40,315 nt of DNA from a virus (Duplodnaviria; Heunggongvirae; Uroviricota; Caudoviricetes). Every line of letters begins with the position of its first letter. The first letter of the stretch is position 1. Under the pieces are notes generated by a model. The model saw nothing but the letters and a program-made list of their open reading frames with translations, was not told the origin of the DNA and ran no database searches. Position numbers and translations under genes: made by a program. Below, piece by piece: positions 1,772 through 34,844 of this stretch. Where the stretch lies: the IMG/VR virus record IMGVR_UViG_2541047797_000007. One strand, given 5' to 3'.

Positions 1772-2397
1772 ATAGCCAGCACCTTACTGGCAGTGACGTA
1801 CCGCGCGCGCCGGTCGTCGATGCCGTTCCGGCCACCATTGATAATCAGAGTTACACGTGCAATATCGCCGGTATACTTCATGCATCCTTTGCTGGCAAAG
1901 AACCACGCCGCGCTACGAGCCGCGTATTCGTCCTGCGCCAGCAGTTCAGGACTCTCCAGCAGGTCAACCTTAAGACCGTTTCCACAGTCACGATAGTTAT
2001 TCAAACCGGTAATCTGGATAAGTCCGCGACCACGGTAATTCCAGCCATCACCAGAGGCATTGTTACCCATGCGTTTGCTGTACACCAGATTTGCGATCGC
2101 GCGCTGGCGCTCGAGTGGCAATGGTGGCTCACCAGCACGGCGGCCCAGTGCGTTAGCCTGTCCCTGGGTGAGACGCCCAGCCCGAACGAAGTTAGCCAGT
2201 CCGGTGACGCTGTAGTTGAAATTTTCCTGCAACCGGTTGAAGCCACCAGACTCATGCCCGACCTGAGCAATAAACATTGCCTGATCTTCGGGTTTGCTGA
2301 TACCAAACTCTTTCATCGCAGAAGTTATATGCGAGAACCAGCGTGCGGCCAGCGCCTCGCTAATACCAGCAGCTCGCTGGAATTGTTTAATCTCCAT
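1768..2397 (-). CDS. Endolysin, glycoside hydrolase family 19 (chitinase-like lysozyme)
   Basis: Protein from MEIKQFQRAAG...: motifs FIAQVGHESGGF and NYRGRGLIQITG are typical of GH19 phage lysozymes. The ORF-track N-terminal extension (to 2628) is rejected; ATG at 2395-2397 gives 209 aa. Confidence 0.8.
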   Translation of the reverse strand: MEIKQFQRAAGISEALAARWFSHITSAMKEFGISKPEDQAMFIAQVGHESGGFNRLQENFNYSVTGLANFVRAGRLTQGQANALGRRAGEPPLPLERQRAIANLVYSKRMGNNASGDGWNYRGRGLIQITGLNNYRDCGNGLKVDLLESPELLAQDEYAARSAAWFFASKGCMKYTGDIARVTLIINGGRNGIDDRRARYVTASKVLAI

Positions 2398-2695
2398 GTT
2401 TAGACCTCGATATTTTGAAAATATGAACAACGTTACCGCGTGTTTTAATAACCGCGGCAAGCATGACAGCGTTGATAATGACCTCAGATAAATCCACAGC
2501 CATTGGCGTGCGTAACCAGATTGCATAGACGACACGAACAGGAATACTTGCCGCAGCAACAATAAGGAAATAAGCAAGCCACCCTCCCCATCTTCGATGT
2601 TGAGAGCCGTTACGCCGGAATGTGACAACGCGAATTGCTATGCCAGTACAAATAACTGCATTGGTGATAAGCAAAAAAAACTCATGCGTTACCAT
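2387..2695 (-). CDS. Small membrane protein in the lysis cassette (holin or antiholin candidate)
   Basis: 102 aa with 2-3 predicted hydrophobic helices; overlaps the endolysin start and the upstream membrane gene. Confidence 0.5.
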   Translation of the reverse strand: MVTHEFFLLITNAVICTGIAIRVVTFRRNGSQHRRWGGWLAYFLIVAAASIPVRVVYAIWLRTPMAVDLSEVIINAVMLAAVIKTRGNVVHIFKISRSKHGD

Positions 2696-3086
2696 CGTCT
2701 TTTCTCCCCGGAATTAACTCGCGTGGATTATCGGAACGGTGATAGAGCCAGATGCCAATACGCACGGCGACAATTGCTGACACGAATGCGCCTGCAGAGA
2801 AAACAATCCCTTTTTCAAAAGAGTCCTGCGTGATGGTAGGGATCAGGCTGGCTATGCCGATAAGAATTGATGCTGCTGGTTTGTAAAAGAGAAGGCCGCA
2901 AAGAAAGCTGAGCATCGACAGGAGCACCCGGCGACGGATGGGGTACTCTACTGCAGAGGTAACAAAAATTACCGCCCCAGCCAAAGCCCCTAAAGCAACC
3001 TCCGGAGGGACACCTGCAATAACCGCAGCAAGAGAACTAACACTAAGCCACTGATTTGAAGTTTCATTGGTTAGTTGGAATGACAT
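2682..3086 (-). CDS. Holin-like membrane protein
   Basis: 134 aa with several hydrophobic helices and a charged C-terminus, immediately upstream of the second membrane protein and endolysin. Confidence 0.55.
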   Translation of the reverse strand: MSFQLTNETSNQWLSVSSLAAVIAGVPPEVALGALAGAVIFVTSAVEYPIRRRVLLSMLSFLCGLLFYKPAASILIGIASLIPTITQDSFEKGIVFSAGAFVSAIVAVRIGIWLYHRSDNPRELIPGRKDDGNA

Positions 3087-3158: not shown

Positions 3159-5621
3159 TCAATTCCCTGTTAATTGCAAAACTTGCTCTTCCAGCTTTTT
3201 AACCCTGCGTCTCATCATCGCAGATTCCAGAATCAGAGCCTCTTCATAACGGATACCGTAACATTCACCAGCCTCGACGGCTTCGCGTACCAGAACCTTT
3301 GTCTGTATAAGTGGGTAAACTCCTGCAGAATGCTCTTCTTCCGTCACATCCCTGTATTCTGCCGGGGTCTCATTCCACTTGTCATAACAGATAAATGCCA
3401 GTCGTGACACATCTATGCCTTCATTCTGAAATACACTGATAACATGCTGCGCAACTGCACCAAAGTGCCATCTTGCTCCGTCTTTACCTTTCACTTCGAT
3501 CCTGTCAAGGTACTGGTATGAAACCCATTCCACTCTTTCCCATGCGTCCAGTATTTTCTCATCAATAACCTCTGGAGCAGTCTTGAAACGCGCATCGGAC
3601 AGCACCGTAAACGCTGACTGGGTAAATCCCCCCGACCATGCACGACCAGCCAACCCAAGAGAATAAGTATTCGTTGTCGATGGTGTCATGGCTGAATCAG
3701 AAAACTGTATATATTCTGAATTTCCAGTAGATATTCGAATATTTCCATTTATTAGCGACATAGTGCCTTTAGTATTATCACTATTGAATAATTTCAATTG
3801 CGAACTTATACCGCCTCCCACAGCCAGAGATACATCGCCTTCAGCAAGCATTCTGAATTTATCTGCAGAAACAAGCGTCTGGTTAGCAAGGTTAAAATAT
3901 TTAACCCACCATTCAAAACGCCCTGACATAGTCCCAACGTACTGACCAAGCGCAGGGACGTGAACAACATTGCTATTTGTAGTGCCGTCTATACTGGAAA
4001 TACCAGTCACCGCTGATGCAGAACTCAGAATATTATTTCTGTCACCCGGATGTTTAATTTCAACAAAGTTCCTGATACACCCTTCCTCGAAGGTAACCAC
4101 GCCGGAAGAACTATACATGGGGAATATTGACGCATAATTACTGCGTGCAGCATCTAAGAAACGAATGGTTGTAGATGTCTGCAGATCTCCTGATTCATTT
4201 TTCCCATCACACCCAGTCATTAGAATATTACTGGCAATATTATTATTTCCCTGAACGGTGACGCCGTGCGCCTGCTTTGCGTCCGATTCAGAGTAATCAA
4301 CCAGCACATCCGAAATCAGGTTACCAGTCCCCTTGCCAACAACTACTGCGGCGTATTTTGGGTTGTTAGCCATTACACTGCTAATGATATTATTCGTTGG
4401 GGCAGTTTCCGTCTCAGTTCCATTGTAAACAACGTGCTGACACTCTTCACCAATAACATTGCTGACAATGTTATATTTTGCTGCTGTTTTAAGTTCCACT
4501 GCACCAAACTGAGGATAATTTCTGGCTATCACACCATCAATTAGCGTATTTTGCGATGAATCAAAAAGCACACAACCTGCTTTTTTATTATTTGCGAACC
4601 CTAAATACTCTCCTCTTATATCTCTAACAATGTAACCTGACGGAATACCATTATCCGGATAAGCGATCAAGCTAAATCCTGGTCCTCGCGTATTTGTAAA
4701 TCTGATATTTTTAACCGATACATCATGGCCACCTGAAAATGACACCTGGTGTCCCTGCACACTATCATCTGATTTATTTCCCATAATTGTTAGCGTACTA
4801 AGCATGCCACCATCGGGCATGTTAAAAACCAGATGATTACCATCTCTGTCATACTGTTTTATCGTTCCCCCACCTGTTCCGTACAAGCCACAACGTGAAA
4901 GAGAAACTAAAGATGTATTGAATACCCCTTCCGGAACAAAAACACTGCTAAACGAATGTAATGATTTTGTAAAAGCATCCTTGTTATCATTTAAGATTCC
5001 ATTTTGAGCTCCAAAATCCTTAATGCTGACACCATCACGCATCTTATCCTGGAACGTTCTGTATACCGCTCCAGAACCATACTGAATAAACCAACCAAAA
5101 CCACCAATAACTCCGGCGATTGCAGCATCGACATAATTACGCATTGAGCGATTATTTACAGCGTCCTGCTCAAGTGATGGATCGGCAAGGTTAGATATTC
5201 TGTTTTGCTTTGCATCGTAATATTTTGCAAGCAAAGATGGTTTCATCAATGCACGTCTGAACCACCCAAAACATCGCTGGATCAGCATCGTCAGGTAGTC
5301 AAATGCATCCTCATGAACTTCGGGGAAAAATTTTCCCTGATTGCGAAGATCAGTCTCCTGCACCACATCAAGCACACGCTCTATCGTGATTCGCCAGCCA
5401 GCAGCAAGCGGCGACGGAAGAACCACTGCACCGCCACTATAAGTTCCCGCCCCTGTTACCGTATAACCAGCATCCAGCACTAGTTTTGTAACGTTACCGT
5501 TAAGGTCAGACACCTGAACAACCAGGTCGGATTTTTTGAAAATACGGAAGGTATACGGAAATGATGTCGTAACGCCGTTACCTGTGTATTCGTTGTGGTC
5601 AACTTCGGTTGAGACCGTCAT
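3159..5621 (-). CDS. Tailspike / tail fiber with conserved N-terminal particle-binding domain, central beta-helix-like region and C-terminal intramolecular chaperone (peptidase S74-like) domain
   Basis: N-terminus MTVSTEVDHNEYTGNGVTTSFPYTF is a conserved phage tailspike anchor motif; Gly/Asn/Ser/Thr-rich central region; C-terminal roughly 150 aa (..LSDARFKT...GARWHFGAVAQ..) resembles the auto-cleaving chaperone domain. SD GGAG upstream of the ATG at 5621. Confidence 0.85.
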   Translation of the reverse strand: MTVSTEVDHNEYTGNGVTTSFPYTFRIFKKSDLVVQVSDLNGNVTKLVLDAGYTVTGAGTYSGGAVVLPSPLAAGWRITIERVLDVVQETDLRNQGKFFPEVHEDAFDYLTMLIQRCFGWFRRALMKPSLLAKYYDAKQNRISNLADPSLEQDAVNNRSMRNYVDAAIAGVIGGFGWFIQYGSGAVYRTFQDKMRDGVSIKDFGAQNGILNDNKDAFTKSLHSFSSVFVPEGVFNTSLVSLSRCGLYGTGGGTIKQYDRDGNHLVFNMPDGGMLSTLTIMGNKSDDSVQGHQVSFSGGHDVSVKNIRFTNTRGPGFSLIAYPDNGIPSGYIVRDIRGEYLGFANNKKAGCVLFDSSQNTLIDGVIARNYPQFGAVELKTAAKYNIVSNVIGEECQHVVYNGTETETAPTNNIISSVMANNPKYAAVVVGKGTGNLISDVLVDYSESDAKQAHGVTVQGNNNIASNILMTGCDGKNESGDLQTSTTIRFLDAARSNYASIFPMYSSSGVVTFEEGCIRNFVEIKHPGDRNNILSSASAVTGISSIDGTTNSNVVHVPALGQYVGTMSGRFEWWVKYFNLANQTLVSADKFRMLAEGDVSLAVGGGISSQLKLFNSDNTKGTMSLINGNIRISTGNSEYIQFSDSAMTPSTTNTYSLGLAGRAWSGGFTQSAFTVLSDARFKTAPEVIDEKILDAWERVEWVSYQYLDRIEVKGKDGARWHFGAVAQHVISVFQNEGIDVSRLAFICYDKWNETPAEYRDVTEEEHSAGVYPLIQTKVLVREAVEAGECYGIRYEEALILESAMMRRRVKKLEEQVLQLTGN

Positions 5622-5725: not shown

Positions 5726-5740
5726 TTACCTTTCGGGTAA
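5726..5740. promoter_or_regulatory. Operator-like site TTACCTTTCGGGTAA (TTACC-N5-GGTAA family)
   Basis: Perfect inverted-repeat half-sites, intergenic between the tailspike start and the plus-strand moron island. Confidence 0.6.
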
Positions 5741-5817
5741 TTTGCAAAACGTGCTGGATAGCAAACAAATTATTTGATACTGTATAAATATACAGTTATT
5801 GCATGGAGAAGATTAAG

Positions 5818-6075
5818 ATGCAGCAGTATCACTATCCACTGGAAGAGGGATTTACCGAAAGGATTCACACGCCGGGAGGCGTCAGGTCACTGGTGGAGGG
5901 ATCGCACTTGATGAAATTACTCCGGGATCTCGATAAGGATGGATTTAATGTCGATGGCCCACTTGCCGAACTGACTGCACTGATTAACTACGTCACCAGC
6001 TCACAGATGTCTATGCAGGATCTGCAAACACATCTCGACTATTGTGCCGAACAATTACGAAAACAAACCAGATAA
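5818..6075 (+). CDS. Small protein homologous to the C-terminal domain of the downstream antirepressor
   Basis: Residues RIHTPGGVRSLVEGSHLMKLLRDL...ELTALINYV...QTHLDY align with Ant C-terminus [24 protein letters not shown]...ELTTMFCYI...QTHAEY. Start chosen at the second ATG (5818), which has SD GGAGAAG; the ORF track starts at 5803. Confidence 0.55.
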   Translation: MQQYHYPLEEGFTERIHTPGGVRSLVEGSHLMKLLRDLDKDGFNVDGPLAELTALINYVTSSQMSMQDLQTHLDYCAEQLRKQTR

Positions 6076-6106
6076 GGTTTGCAATTACCAAATGGAGTGC
6101 TTATAT

Positions 6107-6121
6107 TTACCTTTGCGGTAA
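6107..6121. promoter_or_regulatory. Operator-like site TTACCTTTGCGGTAA
   Basis: Perfect TTACC-N5-GGTAA, extended dyad ATTTACC...GGTAAAT, in the leader between the Ant-domain paralog and ant. Confidence 0.6.
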
Positions 6122-6210
6122 ATTTACATCGCACTCCTCTTGTGCCATAGTAATCGGGCACTGGCAAAATCCAGTGCCGGGATTGGTCTCCCGGATTACT
6201 AAGTGGCGCA

Positions 6211-6236
6211 TACCACGCCAGACGTGGTTTTTTTAT
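6211..6236 (+). terminator. Intrinsic terminator / attenuator in the ant leader
   Basis: Hairpin ACCACG-CCAGA-CGTGGT followed by TTTTTTTA; preceded by further stem-loops at 6140-6200. Confidence 0.5.
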
Positions 6237-6392
6237 GCGTATAGCACAGTCATGCCAGAATTATGGTGGGCTGAATGGGGGTCCGAAAGGACGCCGGTAC
6301 CACTTAGGCCGGTAAGACCAACTCCGTTCAGTTCACCACCATCTGATTGGTCTCAGCGGTGGTGATGTAATTCGCTAAGTGGAGACGCCATC

Positions 6393-7049
6393 ATGAACGC
6401 TCAACTCATCCCCGTATTCAACGGCACTATATCTAACGAAACAGCCCTACTTTGTAATGCCCGCGATCTGCACGCTTTTTTAGGTGTTAAAAAGGTGTTT
6501 GCAGCATGGATTACAAATCGCATATCAGAATACGAATTCATTGAAAATCAAGACTATATTTTGCTTTCCAATTTGGGAAAGCAAACATCTGGTAGAGGCG
6601 GCCACAACCGCAAAGAGTACCACCTCACCCTTGATACAGCCAAAGAGCTGGCGATGGTCGAGCGTAACGAAAAAGGTCGTCAGGTACGACGCTACTTCAT
6701 TGAATGCGAGAAACGTTTAAGACAACAAGAAACAAAAGTGGAGAAGGTCTTGTCAGGCTTCATGCCCGCCATTATGGAGGCGATCAAGCTGGAAGACAAA
6801 AAAGAATACAGTGCCCCGCTGAAGCCCGGCTACCGCAGCCTGATTCATTCGCCGTCTGGTGTTCTCGGCCTGACGGAGAACTCACTGCTGATGAATCTGC
6901 TGAACCAGTTACAGGAAGACGGGCACGACGTATCGGGCGCGGCGGCGGAACTGACCACCATGTTCTGCTACATCGTCGGTGTGAGCAAATGCCTGCGTGA
7001 TATCCAGACCCACGCGGAGTACATCAACGACAAGGCAGGGTTCTTCTGA
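6393..7049 (+). CDS. Phage antirepressor (AntA/AntB-type N-terminal domain)
   Basis: N-terminal region [36 protein letters not shown] matches the AntA antirepressor signature as I recall it; SD GGAG upstream; opposite strand to the surrounding late genes. Confidence 0.75.
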
Positions 7050-7174
7050 CAGAACGGCGGCACAGGGATGTGCCTTTAAATAATTCTGTACGATTGCAGA
7101 CAGGGGGGTGAATAGAGTACTATTACCTTACGGGTGATCCATAGCGATTAGGCACCGATACAGGAGGAGCCCAC

Positions 7175-7223: not shown

Positions 7224-7238
7224 TTACCCTAATGGTAA
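7224..7238. promoter_or_regulatory. Operator-like site TTACCCTAATGGTAA
   Basis: Perfect TTACC-N5-GGTAA, extended ATTTACC...GGTAAAT, 41 bp upstream of the 7279 start; a one-mismatch copy at 7124-7138. Confidence 0.6.
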
Positions 7239-7278: not shown

Positions 7279-7914
7279 ATGCCACAACAACTGCTGAATC
7301 CGGCAAAGGTAACTGAGGTTTTCGCTCATCTGAACGAAACTCCAGACAACCGCGCCCTGTATTCAGAGTTAGTGAACGGCAACGATGTCACATCTGATGT
7401 CAAAGGCGTTTCTCTGGCTCCTGGATACCGCGTTGTCCGTGTAGACGATCGTAAGAAAGGCGAGATTCCACAGGCGCACTTTGAACTGTCATTGATAAAT
7501 GACCTCACCGAAGAGGTAGTGTATTACAATCGTGTCATTATCCAGCCTGACAGCTATCTTAACTGCCGTCCTGTCACGCAGATATTGGTATGGAGAACCC
7601 AGAAGCCTAAGCATCGTGCTGTGCTTCATGATTTCGCCGGCATCATCTTCATGAACTACCTCTTGGAACGGTACGATATCATCGTGTCAGATCGCAACCA
7701 GACTCATGAAGGCATGTCGTTCTGGCAGGCTCGCATGTATGACGCACTGGAACTTGGCCTCCACCTCTATGGTTACGACATGATGACATGCGAGCTGATA
7801 GAGATGAATAACGAGGAAGAGCTTGAGAAAGGTGAAACCTGGTTGTGGGGTGATGCGGAAAACTTCCAAAACAGATTGGCCATAATTTCAAAGCATAAGC
7901 TGCCAATAAAATAG
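7279..7914 (+). CDS. Hypothetical protein (211 aa), moron with its own terminator
   Basis: SD GAGGTGA upstream; no motif I recognise; followed by an intrinsic terminator; embedded antisense in the late operon. Confidence 0.6.
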   Translation: MPQQLLNPAKVTEVFAHLNETPDNRALYSELVNGNDVTSDVKGVSLAPGYRVVRVDDRKKGEIPQAHFELSLINDLTEEVVYYNRVIIQPDSYLNCRPVTQILVWRTQKPKHRAVLHDFAGIIFMNYLLERYDIIVSDRNQTHEGMSFWQARMYDALELGLHLYGYDMMTCELIEMNNEEELEKGETWLWGDAENFQNRLAIISKHKLPIK

Positions 7915-20585: not shown

Positions 20586-21578
20586 TTACACCACGCGGGC
20601 TTCTGTTTCCAGAAGCGCATCAGTTTCACGGATTGGTACACCACGGAATGAAGTCCACCACTCGCCTTCTGTCTCTTTTACGCTGATCGCCAGAGATGTT
20701 TTCTCCAGAGATTGCAGATCAAGAGCCTGGCCTACAGTGCGGTTCATGTAGAACACCGGGCGACCCATGCCACGATTTGGAATGCGATGCAGTGCTTTAA
20801 CCATCAACTTCGCAATATTTGCGGCAGAGGAAGGTTCTGAAAGATTGCTGACATCGATGTTTGCAATGCGAACAACATAACGCCAGTCACGCAGAGCAAG
20901 TCCGTTGTCCCATTTGTAATGGGTACGGTAGCCTTCGTACTTGCCGCCATTCGCATCTTCCAGTGTCACCTGGCCTTTATCTTCCATCTGGATGCCAGCC
21001 TTCTGCCCTTTCGGGAAGATGCCATGCACGGTGTTTTCGCCCCACACCACTAACCAGATTGAGGTGTTATCTGTACCCGTGCCACCAGCATCAATGATGT
21101 TCTGAGCATTACCCGCAGACAGGCTGGAATAGCGGGAGGACAGTCCCATAAACTGCTGAGGGTTAACGCTGGAATCACCATAAAACAGTGTCTGCGCCAT
21201 CTGCTGATTCATCGCTTCAATAAATGCGCGGTCTTCAGACAGGCGGAATTCGGCAGTATTACCGTTCAGATCAGCCAGTGACTTATCGACTTCAGCATAG
21301 GTTTCCAGCATGCCAACGGAATCGGTTACCTGCACTGTGGTTGATTTGCTTGGCTGTACGCCATAGTTCAGCAAACGCCAGGTAGCTGAAGGTAAACCAG
21401 AACGAATGGTGGTTCGGTGTCCGGTAGGAAGGTTCCCTTCGACAAAAGGCATATCCTGAAGGATCGGGTTTGTTTGACCGAGAAGCTCGATAATCTTATC
21501 GACTTTCCCGTTTGGATCGACGCGCTTACCCCAGTCAGCCAGCGTTAGCGCAGTTAAGCCTTTAACAGCCATTGTCAT
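20586..21578 (-). CDS. Major capsid protein (330 aa)
   Basis: Follows the scaffold gene; SD AGAGAGGA upstream of the ATG at 21578; size and position fit a podovirus major capsid protein. Confidence 0.75.
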   Translation of the reverse strand: MTMAVKGLTALTLADWGKRVDPNGKVDKIIELLGQTNPILQDMPFVEGNLPTGHRTTIRSGLPSATWRLLNYGVQPSKSTTVQVTDSVGMLETYAEVDKSLADLNGNTAEFRLSEDRAFIEAMNQQMAQTLFYGDSSVNPQQFMGLSSRYSSLSAGNAQNIIDAGGTGTDNTSIWLVVWGENTVHGIFPKGQKAGIQMEDKGQVTLEDANGGKYEGYRTHYKWDNGLALRDWRYVVRIANIDVSNLSEPSSAANIAKLMVKALHRIPNRGMGRPVFYMNRTVGQALDLQSLEKTSLAISVKETEGEWWTSFRGVPIRETDALLETEARVV

Positions 21579-21586
21579 TTCCTCTC

Positions 21587-22288
21587 TTATTTGCCATAGA
21601 GCACTTCGGCCGCACTACGCTGGCCTTCATTACCACCGGTGACCATGCCATCTTCAGACATCGCCTTTCCGATTCTCACGAACGTTTTGACCAGATCAGG
21701 GTGATTACCCAGCCCGGTGGTGTTCAGATATTCTTTGAGTTCAGGTGTCCCGAACTGGTCAAGCGCACGCTGTGCGACGCTAAGGTTAGAAATCAACTTG
21801 CCGCCACCGATTTCTTTGTCAGCTTTTACATCCGCAGCCCACTGCTCGGTTGTTTTCTGCCAGGCTTCTGCCTGGCGCTGCTGAACACCTGCCAGAATCT
21901 TCGGATAAGCATCAACCAGCTTTTGCGCTTGCTCGTTGGTCAGGTTAAGTTCTCGCGCCACCGGCTCGAATTCCTTCAACGCTTCTGTATCCAGCTCTAC
22001 GCCTTCGGCAGCCTGAAACTCGTACTTCTCAGGCGCACCCTCTGGTTTATCGCCGTCCTTTTTTTCACCCTGCTTATCGTTTTCAGGCTTTTTGTCATCA
22101 GCAGGTTTATCGCCATCAGCAACAGGTTGTGGCTTATCACCTTCCGGTTGTGATGGATCACCAACTGGAGCAGGGTTATCACCTGCAGGCGCTGACGGTT
22201 CTGACGCAGCCGGAGCTGCTCCACCATCGACTGGTTGCTCATTGCAAAGACGGCGATACAGCAAACGCTCAAATAAATTCATGATCAC
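21587..22288 (-). CDS. Scaffolding protein
   Basis: Acidic, Pro/Ala/Asp/Lys-rich low-complexity N-terminal half and helical C-terminal half, located between portal and capsid genes. Confidence 0.65.
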   Translation of the reverse strand: MIMNLFERLLYRRLCNEQPVDGGAAPAASEPSAPAGDNPAPVGDPSQPEGDKPQPVADGDKPADDKKPENDKQGEKKDGDKPEGAPEKYEFQAAEGVELDTEALKEFEPVARELNLTNEQAQKLVDAYPKILAGVQQRQAEAWQKTTEQWAADVKADKEIGGGKLISNLSVAQRALDQFGTPELKEYLNTTGLGNHPDLVKTFVRIGKAMSEDGMVTGGNEGQRSAAEVLYGK

Positions 22289-24568: not shown

Positions 24569-24583
24569 TTACCTTTCAGGTAA
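24569..24583. promoter_or_regulatory. Operator-like site TTACCTTTCAGGTAA in the terminase-portal gap
   Basis: Perfect TTACC-N5-GGTAA preceded by AATTAT as at the early promoter; a TTGACA hexamer lies at 24547-24552. Confidence 0.55.
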
Positions 24584-26614: not shown

Positions 26615-27207
26615 TGATTACCATCCTGACGTTCTTTGAGTCGCTTCCTGGCTGCTGCTATGCGATCAGCAATTGTCACATTCACATTAACATCCAGACG
26701 TTCTTTGAACGCGTTGACATCAACATGCTTACCAATCAGCTCAAGGTTCTTCACCTTGTCAGGCCATTTAATTTTTTTGAGGATTGTCTCTATCGAATCC
26801 TCGTTCATGTTCATGATGGTCGATGACAGATCAAAGCCACTAAGCGTAGTGCGCCAGATTTTCGGCCACTCACGGATTGGTTTAAGGCTCCCATCGTCGT
26901 TGAGGATGTCGATCACGTCCATCTGGTCGATCTCCACCAGGCGCATGAGAACGTAATCAGCACTGACGCGCATTCGTTTGTTGCGCTCCTCCATCAACTC
27001 GGCAATCCGTTTTTGAATGCGTTCATCGCGCATCATGACGCTGGCTTTAACTGCCGCTGTATTTGGGGAGAATCCTGCGTTAATCGCTGCCTGAGTCTGG
27101 TTTTCAGGCGTTTTGATGTATGACTGGCAATAAGCCTCCTGCATTGCTGTTAGTGGCTTAAATTGCGTTGATTTGCGTTTATAGGTTTTAGGTTCAGCAG
27201 GCATCAT
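26611..27207 (-). CDS. Terminase small subunit
   Basis: Directly upstream of and overlapping the large subunit gene. Start placed at the tandem internal ATG codons (27207) because the track N-terminal extension runs through the upstream terminator hairpin. Confidence 0.7.
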   Translation of the reverse strand: MMPAEPKTYKRKSTQFKPLTAMQEAYCQSYIKTPENQTQAAINAGFSPNTAAVKASVMMRDERIQKRIAELMEERNKRMRVSADYVLMRLVEIDQMDVIDILNDDGSLKPIREWPKIWRTTLSGFDLSSTIMNMNEDSIETILKKIKWPDKVKNLELIGKHVDVNAFKERLDVNVNVTIADRIAAARKRLKERQDGNQ

Positions 27208-27249
27208 AACCACCGTGGTAATAGTTACCGTTGTGGTAATAGTACCATG

Positions 27250-30450: not shown

Positions 30451-30465
30451 TTACCCCTTAGGTAA
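30451..30465. promoter_or_regulatory. Operator-like site TTACCCCTTAGGTAA
   Basis: Perfect TTACC-N5-GGTAA, 3 nt upstream (minus strand) of the DUF1064 start codon. Confidence 0.55.
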
Positions 30466-30512
30466 TTAAAAACCACATAAGACATGAAATCAATAGAGAT
30501 TAGAACATTTTG

Positions 30513-30527
30513 TTACCCAACAGGTAA
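30513..30527. promoter_or_regulatory. Operator-like site TTACCCAACAGGTAA
   Basis: Perfect TTACC-N5-GGTAA in the same intergenic region, 62 bp from the previous site. Confidence 0.55.
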
Positions 30528-32177: not shown

Positions 32178-32378
32178 TCAGCTTGAATGTTGTGGGGAGG
32201 AATTAATCATGATCTGCTTAATCTCTGCCCTGATGCGACGGTTTGATTCCATGGTGCACTCAACACAGTGTCCGTTGTAAACCCAGCGTTCACTGTCATG
32301 TCCGTGCTTACATGGTTTTCCGGTGTAGTAGCGTTTAAGTCCGCGCTTTGCGGCATCAATACGTGTAATGATTTCCAT
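32178..32378 (-). CDS. Small Cys/His-rich (zinc-finger-like) early protein
   Basis: Start placed at the internal ATG (MEIITRIDAAKRGL...); motif CKHGH...NGHCVEC; located between the Cro-like gene and the O-like gene. Confidence 0.45.
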   Translation of the reverse strand: MEIITRIDAAKRGLKRYYTGKPCKHGHDSERWVYNGHCVECTMESNRRIRAEIKQIMINSSPQHSS

Positions 32379-32528
32379 GGTAAGCCCTGTTATTAGTATT
32401 GGGATTACGGTTATTTTGTGCTGACACAAAAAAAAGATCAACCAGATTTGGTTTTTTATTACCTTTGAGGTGCGAATAGATATGAAAAGACCGCCGGATG
32501 GCGGTCTACAGAGGGTTGTGGCTGGATA

Positions 32529-32759
32529 TCATGAGTAGAAGAAGTATGCCAGTTCTGCTTTTGAGCGCAGCCATTGTCTTGTTTTACAGGCTTTAAAAAG
32601 CCCATTCATCAATACCTTACCTGGCATTTTGCGCTTACCTGTTAAGTGAGTCTGGATATAGTGACTCGTCGTTCCGGCTTCCTGTGCGAAGGCTTCACGC
32701 TCATCCGGAGTAAGTGCAAGCCAGTGCTTTTTGAAATCGAAATGTCCGTTATCGCTCAT
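32529..32759 (-). CDS. Cro-like small HTH regulator (first gene of the early replication operon)
   Basis: 76 aa; segment LTPDEREAFAQEAGTTSHYIQTHLTG resembles an HTH; divergent from the CI-like gene across an operator-rich region. Confidence 0.55.
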   Translation of the reverse strand: MSDNGHFDFKKHWLALTPDEREAFAQEAGTTSHYIQTHLTGKRKMPGKVLMNGLFKACKTRQWLRSKAELAYFFYS

Positions 32760-32791
32760 AGCTATTGCCTGATATTTATTTCAGATAATAA

Positions 32792-32820
32792 ATATTCACC
32801 CATAAGGTAACAAAAATCAA
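32792..32820 (-). promoter_or_regulatory. Candidate early promoter driving the Cro-like/O/P operon
   Basis: On the minus strand: TTGATT, 17-bp spacer, GAATAT. The spacer contains operator site TCACC-CATAA-GGTAA (32796..32810). Confidence 0.5.
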
Positions 32821-32858
32821 GGATAGTTACCTATGGGGTGCATTTACCTATTGGGTAA
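32796..32858. promoter_or_regulatory. Operator cluster in the immunity intergenic region (three TTACC-N5-GGTAA-type sites)
   Basis: Sites at 32796-32810 (TCACC..GGTAA), 32827-32841 (TTACC..GGTGC) and 32844-32858 (perfect), plus an AT-rich dyad ATATTTATT / AATAAATAT at 32772-32795. Confidence 0.65.
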
Positions 32859-32913
32859 TATTGCTTTAAATTGAATCATCTACTGATTCATATATGAGGC
32901 GATTTTCCAGAAA

Positions 32914-33498
32914 ATGAAAAGTATCCAGGACGTCCGCAGGCAAAATCTCAACGACTTGATCGACCGTGAATTCAATGGTGTTCAGACGCGGATGGCAGAA
33001 AAACTTGGAACTCAGGCAAATCTGGTAAACCGCTGGGCTCTTGGCAAGAAGGTTATCGGCGACCAGGTTGCGCGAAAAATTGAAGCTGCCGCCAATAAAC
33101 CCCGTAACTGGCTTGATATCGATCGCTCGCTTTCTCAGGAAGGTTTTCAGCCTGTCGGCCCAAGCGACATTGGTCAGCTGGCGGCTCACAACCTAGAACG
33201 CTGGATGAGCGAAAGCCGCGACCTTTCAACGCAGGGAAAACTTCACCGCGCATCCGGCGTCGCCCAGGTGACAATCAGCCGCCTGTTAAACAATGAGGTC
33301 AGTGTTTCCATTTCCACCCTGGAGAATGTTGCATCCGCATTCGGGCGTCACGGCTATGAATTACTGATTCACCCGCACGACCCTGCGACCATCAACTATG
33401 ACCGCTCGCGCTACGCATTGTTACCTGAAACAGAGAAGGCAAAGATCGAAAGTTACATTGAATTTGTCATCAGCCAGAACGAAAAAAACAAACAATAA
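32914..33498 (+). CDS. CI-like repressor candidate with two HTH domains and no S24 peptidase domain
   Basis: Two HTH-like segments (MAEKLGTQANLVNRWALGKK and ASGVAQVTISRLLNNEVSVSISTLENVA); divergent from the Cro-like gene; followed by an intrinsic terminator; no Ala-Gly/Ser-Lys autocleavage module visible. Confidence 0.6.
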   Translation: MKSIQDVRRQNLNDLIDREFNGVQTRMAEKLGTQANLVNRWALGKKVIGDQVARKIEAAANKPRNWLDIDRSLSQEGFQPVGPSDIGQLAAHNLERWMSESRDLSTQGKLHRASGVAQVTISRLLNNEVSVSISTLENVASAFGRHGYELLIHPHDPATINYDRSRYALLPETEKAKIESYIEFVISQNEKNKQ

Positions 33499-33518
33499 AA
33501 CCATATTTTTCAGTAAGT

Positions 33519-33545
33519 AAGCCGCCTCATGGCGGCTTTTTTATT
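33519..33545 (+). terminator. Rho-independent terminator after the CI-like gene
   Basis: Hairpin GCCGCC-TCAT-GGCGGC followed by TTTTTTATTG. Confidence 0.75.
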
Positions 33546-33555
33546 GCCTGTGCGA

Positions 33556-33570
33556 TTACCTGATGGGTAA
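33556..33570. promoter_or_regulatory. Operator-like site TTACCTGATGGGTAA upstream of the early-left promoter
   Basis: Perfect TTACC-N5-GGTAA, 20 bp upstream of the -35 hexamer. Confidence 0.6.
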
Positions 33571-33589
33571 TTTTTTTAACTCATATCTA

Positions 33590-33617
33590 TTGACATCAAA
33601 CCAGATACGCATAATTA
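33590..33617 (+). promoter_or_regulatory. Candidate sigma-70 early-left promoter
   Basis: TTGACA at 33590-33595 and TAATTA/ATAATT at 33611-33617 (15-16 bp spacer), with an operator site overlapping the -10 and start region. Confidence 0.55.
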
Positions 33618-33632
33618 TTACCTCAACGGTAA
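33618..33632. promoter_or_regulatory. Operator-like site TTACCTCAACGGTAA overlapping the early-left promoter
   Basis: Perfect TTACC-N5-GGTAA directly abutting the -10 element. Confidence 0.6.
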
Positions 33633-33651
33633 CAGACCGAGGTAACAAGTT

Positions 33652-33801
33652 ATGCAGTGGAAAATCATCAACGGTTGGTACTGCGTTACTGCATGCGGAT
33701 TCATGAGCTGGAAGTTCCGCACCTTACAGGAAGGCATTAAGTGGGCTTTCGTCAGCAAAGAAGCTCGCGATGTGGCCAACGATAACGAGATATGGGAGTA
33801 G
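33652..33801 (+). CDS. Possible small protein (49 aa), first gene of the early-left operon
   Basis: Hand-translated MQWKIINGWYCVTACGFMSWKFRTLQEGIKWAFVSKEARDVANDNEIWE; SD GAGGT upstream; below the ORF-track cutoff. Confidence 0.4.
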   Translation: MQWKIINGWYCVTACGFMSWKFRTLQEGIKWAFVSKEARDVANDNEIWE

Positions 33802-33809
33802 GTTAGCAA

Positions 33810-34844
33810 ATGAGTGAATTATCAATCATCGAAATCACACCAGATATGGCACCAAGAATTTACGTTGAAAAAGGACTGGAAAAGTTTCTCGAGCAGATCC
33901 GTGAAGGTGTTAATGAAGTGCCTGACATTAGCACAGACAAAGGCAGAAAGCGCATTGCATCTCTGGCTGCGAAGGTTTCAAGAAGTAAAACAGCGGTAGA
34001 AAAACCAGGACGTGATTATCTGAAACGCCTGAAAGAACAGCCGAAAGTAGTTGAAGCAGAGTTACGACGCTTCGTAACCGAATGCGATCGGCTTCGTGAT
34101 GAAGTACGCCGCCCACTCACCGAGTGGGAAAATGCTGAGAAATTACGCACTGAAGCACTGCAACAACGCCTGACAAATTTGCGAGCACTGGCTGACGTGA
34201 TCGATCTCTCCGGAAACTACTTGCCATCAACTGATATTCAGGAACGAATTCAAGAGGCTAAATCAGTAGCACTTGATGAGAGTTGGCAGGAGTACGCAGC
34301 AGAAGCTGGAGTAGCCAAGGATTCAACCATCCAGAAACTGGAAGAATCACTCGCAGTAGCTCAAAAACGCGAGCATGAAGCCGCTGAGCTGGAGAGACTT
34401 CGCAAAGAAGCGGAGGAAAAAGCGCGCATTGAGCGAGAAGAGAATATCCGCCGGGAAGCTGCTGAACAGGCCAGGCTCGAAGCTGAACAAAAAGCGAAAG
34501 CTGAAATTGATGCTGCGGCACGCCTAGCGGCGGAAGAGAAAGCACGTGCTGAAGTAGCAGAACGTCAGCGAATTGAAGCAGAGCAGCGTGCACGACGCGA
34601 AAAAGAAGAAGCCGTTGCCGAGGAACGCCGACGCCAAGAGGAGGCAGAAAAAGCCCGCATTGAAGAACAGAAGCGTATCGCCGACGAAGAAGCGCGCCGA
34701 GCTGCGGATAAAGAGCATCGCCGTACCGTTAACCGCAGAGTAATCGCAGATCTGATAGCCCAAGGCATTCCCGAAGAATTCGCGCAGAAAGCAATGTTGG
34801 CTATCGCTGGCGGCAAAGTGCAGGACGCGTATATCAAATATTGA
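33810..34844 (+). CDS. Hypothetical protein with long charged coiled-coil repeat region (E/A/R/K-rich)
   Basis: SD GGGAG upstream; C-terminal half consists of AEEKARxE-like heptad repeats; function unknown. Confidence 0.55.
   Translation: MSELSIIEITPDMAPRIYVEKGLEKFLEQIREGVNEVPDISTDKGRKRIASLAAKVSRSKTAVEKPGRDYLKRLKEQPKVVEAELRRFVTECDRLRDEVRRPLTEWENAEKLRTEALQQRLTNLRALADVIDLSGNYLPSTDIQERIQEAKSVALDESWQEYAAEAGVAKDSTIQKLEESLAVAQKREHEAAELERLRKEAEEKARIEREENIRREAAEQARLEAEQKAKAEIDAAARLAAEEKARAEVAERQRIEAEQRARREKEEAVAEERRRQEEAEKARIEEQKRIADEEARRAADKEHRRTVNRRVIADLIAQGIPEEFAQKAMLAIAGGKVQDAYIKY

Follow-up and report, generated by a model that had tools for sequence, protein, structure and literature searches.

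A Rep–Ant-like immunity switch with a repressor of the non-cleavable type and two putative antirepressors in a phiV10/epsilon15-like phage

How would a prophage be induced if its repressor carries no autocleavage domain? The question is raised by positions 32529–33632 of a 40,315-nt DNA from a tailed virus (Caudoviricetes; IMG/VR record IMGVR_UViG_2541047797_000007), referred to here as the window. The original prediction, made from the sequence alone, placed a CI-like repressor gene (rep) in this region and an AntA-type antirepressor gene (antA) far away from it. It proposed induction through an antirepressor instead of RecA-stimulated repressor cleavage, with any SOS input acting through expression of the AntA-type gene. 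Our analysis indicates that the region is very probably the immunity switch of a phiV10/epsilon15-like temperate podophage (Uetakevirus), working like the Rep–Ant switch of phage SPC32H. The SOS input is predicted to go through a second, smaller gene, ant.

Results

The repressor resembles SPC32H Rep over its whole length

The open reading frame (ORF) rep (32914..33498, plus strand) codes for a repressor of 194 amino acids (aa). Pfam gave HTH_3 at aa 106–147 (1e-9) and a weak YdaS/HTH-like match at aa 21–61, in agreement with the two helix-turn-helix (HTH)-like segments originally predicted. Peptidase_S24 was absent from the Pfam matches even at E ≤ 0.1, and the predicted lack of a LexA/S24-type domain was thus borne out. 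The 194 aa were also read directly and contained no Ala-Gly or Cys-Gly dipeptide as an autocleavage site. Both marks of the autocleavable LexA/lambda CI class, the S24 domain with its Ser-Lys dyad and the cleavage-site dipeptide, were missing from Rep. An S24 domain cannot fit, since only about 45 aa remain beyond the second HTH.

Rep aligned end to end (aa 1–190) with SPC32H Rep in PDB 5d50_A (E 4e-42), and its aa 89–190 aligned with 5d4z_A, the SPC32H Rep C-terminal fragment. BLASTP against SPC32H Rep gave 42% identity (E 2e-53). The C-terminal half aligned with the dimerization and tetramerization domains of SPC32H Rep and not with S24. SPC32H Rep has an N-terminal DNA-binding domain, a middle dimerization domain, and a C-terminal domain for tetramerization and antirepressor contact (PMC9986798). 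With these domain names, the Rep of the window is predicted to consist of an N-terminal DNA-binding domain (about aa 1–70), a middle HTH_3-like dimerization domain (about aa 89–152), and a C-terminal tetramerization/Ant-binding domain (about aa 153–190). By this alignment, the two HTH-like segments are the putative DNA-binding and dimerization domains.

A small ant gene is preceded by the only intergenic LexA box

The gene ant (5818..6075, plus strand; 85 aa) lies directly after the tailspike gene start and was not listed in the original prediction. Its product matched 5d50_E, the 'Anti-repressor protein' of the SPC32H Rep–Ant complex (E 1.7e-47), and was 88% identical to SPC32H Ant. Its PHROG matches were phrog_450, phrog_15539, and phrog_1760. 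ATG 5818 was chosen as the start codon over ATG 5803 on two grounds: a GGAG is located 8 nt upstream of it, and the alignment of the relatives begins there. Tyrion gp21 (21439..21603, 54 aa) is the ant homologue annotated too short; its complete ORF is 21439..21717 (minus strand), and the conserved N-terminus starts upstream of the called one.

A LexA (SOS) box, TACTGTATAAATATACAGTT (5778..5797, plus strand), is located 21 bp upstream of the ant start codon. It agrees at 18 of 20 positions with the LexA consensus. A scan of the window with CTGT-N8-ACAG gave this site as the sole intergenic match; none preceded antA. Operators and LexA boxes were compared in five genomes (the window, phiV10, SPC32H, epsilon15, and Tyrion). 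SPC32H, epsilon15, and Tyrion have a CTGT-N8-ACAG match at the corresponding position before ant, and the phiV10 box was seen in the alignment. Promoter scans gave no confident sigma-70 promoter for ant, and likewise none for the tailspike gene. An invariant block, GTGCTGGATAG, was also observed in all five genomes; in the window it occupies 5750–5762, with the 5726 operator on one side and the LexA box on the other. An integration host factor (IHF) site is annotated nearby in epsilon15, and the block may be part of the ant promoter or of the tailspike promoter.

The SPC32H system was described by Kim and Ryu (2013, J Virol 87:11775) and Kim et al. (2016, PNAS 113:E2480), with structures PDB 5D4Z and 5D50. 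The 2013 study reportedly showed that Rep is not cleaved during SOS induction and that the sister phage SPC32N is constitutively lytic because of a point mutation in its LexA site. In SPC32H, self-cleavage of LexA lets the antirepressor be made, which then inhibits the repressor by protein–protein contact (PMC7380047). SPC32H Rep occupies palindromic sites in tetrameric form; an Ant tetramer captures two Rep dimers and disrupts the Rep tetramer (PMC9638917). By these homologies, the small Ant is probably the SOS-triggered inactivator of Rep. The predicted antirepressor-mediated induction is therefore strengthened by the full-length homology of Rep to SPC32H Rep, but the SOS link was misplaced: it points to the small ant and not to the AntA-type gene.

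Putative Rep operators are dispersed and bracket predicted promoters

The operator is a 15-bp palindrome, TTACC-N5-GGTAA. The window contains 10 perfect and 4 one-mismatch sites, 14 in all against 0.62 expected, and none of 100 shuffles reached 14. A six-base spacer (N6) was rejected, as its matches were off register and N5 was correct. In operator alignments, the half-sites were invariant, and the central five bases and the flanks varied.

Three operators lie between rep and the gene at the cro position: 32796–32810 (1 mismatch), 32827–32841 (2 mismatches, degenerate), and 32844–32858 (perfect). Their half-sites are kept in phiV10, SPC32H, epsilon15, and Tyrion, and the flanks diverge. The cro-position gene (32529..32759, minus strand) codes for a 76-aa HTH protein (phrog_35 'transcriptional repressor', 5.6e-13) and is the first gene of the replication/late-direction transcript; its counterparts are phiV10p41 and epsilon15 gp39. 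The promoter scan gave a P_R-like promoter for it, TTGTTA-17-TATTAT (32785..32813, minus strand), and operator 32796–32810 sits between the two hexamers.

Downstream of rep, a predicted intrinsic terminator (33519..33538, plus strand), also annotated in phiV10, is followed by a P_L-like early-left promoter, TTGACA-17-AATTAT (33590..33618, plus strand). This promoter is bracketed by perfect operators at 33556–33570 and 33618–33632 (whole element 33556..33632). A third bracketed lytic promoter, TTGATT-17-TTTAAT, is proposed between two perfect operators at 30451..30527 (minus strand), upstream of the DUF1064 gene and the late direction. It was read by eye and was not called by the consensus scan. 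The paired operators at 33556/33618 and 30451/30513 are both 62 bp apart (start to start), both bracket a sigma-70-like promoter, and in both the downstream operator abuts the -10 element. The 62-bp spacing was identical in five of five genomes, which suggests that one Rep tetramer spans both sites of a pair.

The operators occupy matching places in the five genomes. Three lie between rep and the cro-position gene, and two or three surround the promoter downstream of rep. A further two come after the replication genes, a single one sits between ant and the tailspike gene, one or two precede the small terminase gene, and one precedes the portal-region genes. The ant–tailspike site (5726..5740 in the window) is perfect and kept in all five; its syntenic site is marked 'protein_bind repressor' in the epsilon15 RefSeq record. 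That record marks several syntenic sites as repressor-binding, though not those between rep and the cro-position gene. The picture of dispersed operators is not new, since these epsilon15 sites were already annotated.

Two operator-like sites 18 bp apart lie near the small terminase gene start (27207..27239), and a perfect one lies in the gap between the terminase and portal genes (24569..24583). The former are syntenic with an epsilon15 repressor annotation, and the latter with the epsilon15 repressor site 2931–2947. Promoter scans near 24569 and 27207/27225 gave no confident sigma-70 promoter. At these sites, the repressor may act directly on late and packaging genes, as P1 C1 does.

AntA carries an Ant-like domain behind an operator-covered promoter

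The gene antA (6393..7049, plus strand; 218 aa) lies about 26 kb from rep, as the original prediction stated. Its product has an AntA domain (aa 22–92, Pfam 4e-26) fused to an SPC32H-Ant-like domain (aa 137–213). The C-terminus matched phrog_450 (3.9e-36), the same PHROG family as the small Ant. It was 42% identical to the small Ant of the window (E 3e-16) and matched SPC32H Ant 5d50_E (E 4.6e-14). The last 80 residues were identical to those of ORF4 of phage vB_EcoP_ZX5. From these alignments, the C-terminal domain is read as a paralogue of the small Ant, and AntA is probably a second antirepressor of Rep. We had also considered AntA as an unrelated accessory gene; this was dropped on the PHROG, PDB, and BLASTP matches of its C-terminus to Ant and on the identity with ZX5 ORF4. 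In NCBIfam and PADLOC, nothing useful was found for Ant, AntA, or the cro-position protein.

The large antirepressors of Tyrion and ZX5 share the C-terminal domain of AntA but carry Bro-N instead of the AntA head. Overexpression of ZX5 ORF4 lowered lysogens from 10^9 to 10^6 per mL, about 1000-fold; the ZX5 repressor was reported to be identical to that of phiV10, and its overexpression abolished free phage (PMC9782041). The ZX5 paper contains no mention of SPC32H, LexA, or the small ant gene (PMC9782041). In phiV10, p23 (2266..2850), a Bro-N 'anti-immunity' protein, ends early compared with ZX5 and Tyrion, and the second antirepressor may be defective in this type phage.

Among 50,697 phage records, 35 had the Ant-like domain and 36 had a homologue of the Rep C-terminus (coverage at least 80%); all 35 were among the 36. 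This co-occurrence is suggestive. The only full Rep carrier without an Ant homologue was Escherichia phage BP9 (PP488543, 138 kb), whose rep region is 98% identical; its record may be a chimeric or contaminated assembly. In tblastn, TL-2011b (JQ011317) and HEMP4 (OR424387) gave three separate Ant-domain matches; the window has two, and the Salmonella phages have one. The larger Klebsiella phage records ST512-KPC3phi13.3 and ST11-OXA245phi3.2 (60–63 kb) carried both an Ant homologue (about 64% identity) and a homologue of the Rep C-terminus (about 45%). The Ant–Rep pair thus seems to travel jointly outside the 39-kb podophage backbone.

The predicted promoter of the antA module, TTGCAA-17-TATATT (6079..6107, plus strand), is 286 bp upstream of antA. 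A perfect operator (6107–6121) abuts its -10 element and covers the start-site region (whole element 6079..6121). The same operator motif at rep and antA had been predicted, and it held. In phiV10 and Tyrion, the half-sites of this operator were invariant and its 5-bp core was variable.

Two RNAs lie between this promoter and antA

Rfam identified an isrK-family RNA (6158..6234, plus strand; RF01394, 67.7 bits against a gathering score of 50), with a terminator at 6212–6228, and a C4 antisense RNA (6259..6343, plus strand; RF01695, 61.2 bits against a gathering score of 45). Both scored above gathering in the window, phiv142-3, phiV10, Tyrion, and vB_EcoP_ZX5. The Rfam search found no such cassette in SPC32H or epsilon15.

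The unpaired segments of C4 are b' (CCACTTAG, 6300–6307) and a' (AGACCAA, 6315–6321), found as inverted repeats I1, I4, I7, and I8. Complementarity placed upstream targets inside isrK (a1, TTGGTCT, 6183–6189; b1, CTAAGTGG, 6199–6206) and downstream targets before antA (a2, TTGGTCT, 6347–6353; b2, CTAAGTGG, 6375–6382), all on the plus strand. The b2 target overlaps the Shine-Dalgarno sequence of the antA ATG at 6393. The names a1/b1, a'/b', and a2/b2 are taken from Citron and Schuster (1990), who reportedly found that loop/target differences underlie P1/P7 immI heteroimmunity. In phiV10, all three a elements changed jointly (TTGGCGT/ACGCCAA), and all three b elements likewise (CTAAAAGG/CCTTTTAG). 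Tyrion had a third b type (CTACAAAGG/CCTTTGTAG). The predicted pairing of C4 with its targets is supported by this three-way covariation in relatives.

A 37-codon ORF with an ATG start (6252..6365, plus strand) overlaps C4 and takes the place that orf45 has in Gifsy-1. Neither phiV10 nor Tyrion keeps its start codon, and ZX5 has a 38-aa 'ash family protein' annotated at this position. A longer ORF with a TTG start (6042..6365, 107 aa) was rejected as a gene, as it overlies the isrK and C4 RNAs.

After antA, an ORF of 211 aa (7279..7914, plus strand) matched phrog_1349 (3e-78) and had no Pfam, NCBIfam, or PADLOC match. Operator-like sites at 7123–7137 and 7224–7238 precede it. It looks like a Rep-controlled accessory gene, since phiv142-3 and phiV10 carry different small ORFs there.

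The window belongs to a common group of E. coli prophages

Positions 32300–34000, the rep region, were 97.8% identical to Escherichia phage phiv142-3 and 98.5% identical to phiV10 across the 88% that aligned. Weaker matches were Enterobacter phage Tyrion and Salmonella phages, and all belong to the genus Uetakevirus (epsilon15-like podophages). The minus strand carries the replication and late genes, from about 32760 down to the tailspike gene (3159..5621). The plus strand carries early-left recombination genes from 33650, and an integrase gene is located at the right end. This gene layout fits the identification as a phiV10/epsilon15-like phage.

The rep–cro segment was present at no less than 95% identity in 540 of 5,426 complete E. 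coli genomes (about 10%), and it is a very common prophage immunity region. The exact configuration of the antA module was found in 74 E. coli genomes, compared with the 540 that had the rep–cro region.

Discussion

A proposed order of events

From the observed homologies, motif statistics, synteny, RNA-family matches, and covariation, we infer a circuit in which Rep would not be cleaved, Ant and AntA would both bind it, and AntA would act in a feedback. Bound to the TTACC-N5-GGTAA operators, Rep would silence the cro-direction promoter, the early-left promoter, the third promoter after the replication genes, and further genomic sites. Cleavage is not expected, as Rep has no protease domain. 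The small ant would be kept silent in the lysogen by host LexA bound to the box at 5778–5797. DNA damage would remove LexA, and Ant would be made. By homology with 5D50, Ant may then bind the C-terminal region of Rep and split the DNA-binding tetramer into dimers, which would free the operators.

The loss of Rep would also open the promoter at 6079–6107, from which isrK, C4, and antA would be transcribed. C4 is predicted to pair with a2/b2 over the antA ribosome-binding site and to block translation, and the a1/b1 copies in isrK could serve as a decoy that titrates C4. Once Rep starts to fail, or early in infection, AntA may add a second, self-reinforcing dose of antirepressor.

Alternative explanations

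In the original prediction, the AntA-type protein was itself the antirepressor of induction, with SOS acting through antA expression. Three observations are in favor of such a role: antA lies behind an operator-covered promoter, its product carries the Ant-like C-terminal domain, and its ZX5 counterpart counteracts lysogeny on overexpression. However, the sole intergenic CTGT-N8-ACAG site in the window precedes the small ant, and antA translation is predicted to be gated by C4 RNA. SPC32H and epsilon15 have the LexA-box ant gene and no large antirepressor, and the large antirepressor of phiV10 is truncated. The antA promoter could not fire before Rep is failing, since a Rep operator covers it. 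With no LexA box nearby and a promoter controlled by Rep, AntA is an improbable SOS-responsive antirepressor. A different role would place AntA outside this switch, as part of a mobile isrK–C4–antirepressor accessory like those in Gifsy-1 and Stx prophages, acting on repressors of co-resident prophages or on the host. At the DNA level, the first 100 codons of antA share about 91% identity with antirepressor genes of Stx phages. An unrelated lambdoid prophage also has the isrK/anrP cassette (PMC4825925), and cross-talk of trans-acting antirepressors is documented in Salmonella (PMC7380047). The absence of the isrK–C4–antA module from SPC32H and epsilon15 and its small share of the E. coli genomes point the same way. 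We nevertheless regard this role as doubtful. The paralogue of Ant at the AntA C-terminus was found in the phage database only in genomes encoding a Rep homologue, and it is kept while the N-terminal domain is exchanged. The antA promoter has the phage's own operator with conserved half-sites, and ZX5 ORF4 affects the lysogeny of its own phage.

That Rep is cleaved after all, at a cryptic autocleavage site or by a separate IrrE/ImmA-type protease, is highly improbable. No observation in its favor was found; a different fate is a general possibility at 42% identity to SPC32H Rep. Against it stand the missing S24 match and dipeptides and the alignment of the whole Rep to a solved repressor built of DNA-binding, dimerization, and tetramerization domains. 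In addition, the head protease is the sole protease among the annotations of the epsilon15, SPC32H, Tyrion, and phiV10 records. The SPC32H-like reading has weak points of its own. Rep is only 42% identical to the experimentally tested SPC32H protein, and for this reason its non-cleavage and its binding by Ant are proposed by homology. No convincing -10 element could be placed for the ant promoter, and the overlap of the LexA box with that promoter is accordingly putative. The AntA–Rep interaction is likewise a proposal, and AntA could have other targets, since its N-terminal domain is common to Stx-phage antirepressors. The second module seems dispensable, given that the phiV10 large antirepressor is truncated inside the Ant-like domain and SPC32H has none. 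Finally, most of the records in which Ant and Rep co-occur belong to one genus, so that they do not count as phylogenetically independent evidence.

Comparison with known systems

SPC32H is the closest system. It belongs to the same genus and has the same gene order, in which ant diverges from the tailspike gene and rep from the cro-position gene. The two phages share a homologous full-length Rep, an 88%-identical Ant, a LexA box before ant, and syntenic TTACC/GGTAA half-sites with the same 62-bp pairing, with operators at the rep/cro and early-left promoters. The window differs from SPC32H and epsilon15 by an extra 1.9 kb after ant, containing isrK, C4, the fused second antirepressor, and the 211-aa ORF.

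The cassette upstream of antA is most like immI of P1 and P7. In both, a C4-family RNA (RF01695) lies upstream of the antirepressor gene on the same strand and is flanked by two target sets, the downstream one over the ribosome-binding site of the antirepressor gene, and loops and targets covary between phages. As in P1, operators of the main repressor are scattered over the genome, one of them at the immI-type promoter. P1 C1 has 22 dispersed operators, and c4 RNA represses Ant synthesis (PMC8546580). Unlike P1 and P7, the window has no icd-like ORF, and only 49 nt separate C4 from the antA ATG. Its repressor is unrelated to P1 C1, its antirepressor is an AntA/Ant-like fusion, and a LexA-controlled second antirepressor gene lies directly upstream.

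The cassette also resembles isrK-orf45-anrP of Gifsy-1, in which an isrK-family RNA with its own terminator precedes a processed RNA region and a gene for an antirepressor-like protein. The Gifsy-1 read-through transcripts are translationally silent and are activated in trans by the short IsrK; prophage induction is brought about by AnrP (Hershko-Shalev et al. 2016; PMC4825925). The phage of the window differs in being a podovirus with a different repressor, in having a Rep operator at the promoter, and in having no link to AntQ.

The original prediction compared the location of ant with the immI arrangement of P22 and placed it inside the late operon. In P22, the ant region lies apart from the main immunity region, beside the tailspike gene, and the c2 repressor is itself RecA-cleavable. 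The antirepressor region of the window is similarly away from the main immunity region and beside the tailspike gene, and an antisense RNA is involved. It does lie within the late-gene region; however, it is on the opposite strand and is therefore not part of the late operon. The regulators differ, as predicted: no ORF between 5803 and 7914 had an Arc/Mnt-type Pfam match. Transcription of the window ant leads away from the tailspike gene, control is predicted to be by LexA, a Rep operator, and C4, and Rep has no cleavage domain. The closest analogue of the cassette is accordingly P1/P7 immI and not P22. A P22 ant mutant is still SOS-inducible (PMC7380047).

A non-cleavable repressor, an antirepressor gene with a LexA box, and inactivation by protein contact are also features of 186 Tum, the Gifsy/Fels-2 antirepressors, and N15 AntC (PMC7380047). 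These proteins appear unrelated to the small Ant, as none was among its PHROG matches, which is not a direct comparison.

Implications

The core mechanism, a non-cleavable repressor with a LexA-controlled antirepressor, is known and published for SPC32H of the same genus; what the original prediction offered had thus already been described for this genus. As a published mechanism in a well-sequenced phage group, the finding is ordinary. In the literature searched, we found no description of a LexA-controlled small Ant beside a P1-type, C4-gated large antirepressor, nor of homology between the Rep-binding domains of small and large Ant or of covarying C4 specificities in the genus. The two-antirepressor layout is apparently undescribed, and it is a modest variation built from known parts.

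For annotation, the small ant is labelled 'hypothetical protein' in nearly all relatives and is called too short in Tyrion. The ZX5 experiments tested the large antirepressor without noticing the small, LexA-controlled one.

Our tentative proposal, for which the chances seem to us somewhat below even, is that E. coli and Enterobacter members of the genus run an undescribed two-stage antirepressor circuit. LexA-gated Ant would start the inactivation of Rep, and a second, C4-gated antirepressor with an AntA or Bro-N head, controlled by a Rep operator, would then give the positive feedback that commits the phage to lysis. If this is true, the covarying C4 loops and targets would amount to a second immunity specificity like the one that distinguishes P1 from P7, and the SPC32H Ant fold would be a portable repressor-binding module joined to different N-terminal domains. 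A testable idea is that two elements are joined in the phiV10 lineage, an SOS trigger of the SPC32H type and a second antirepressor gated by antisense RNA as in P1, and that the two share one repressor-binding domain.

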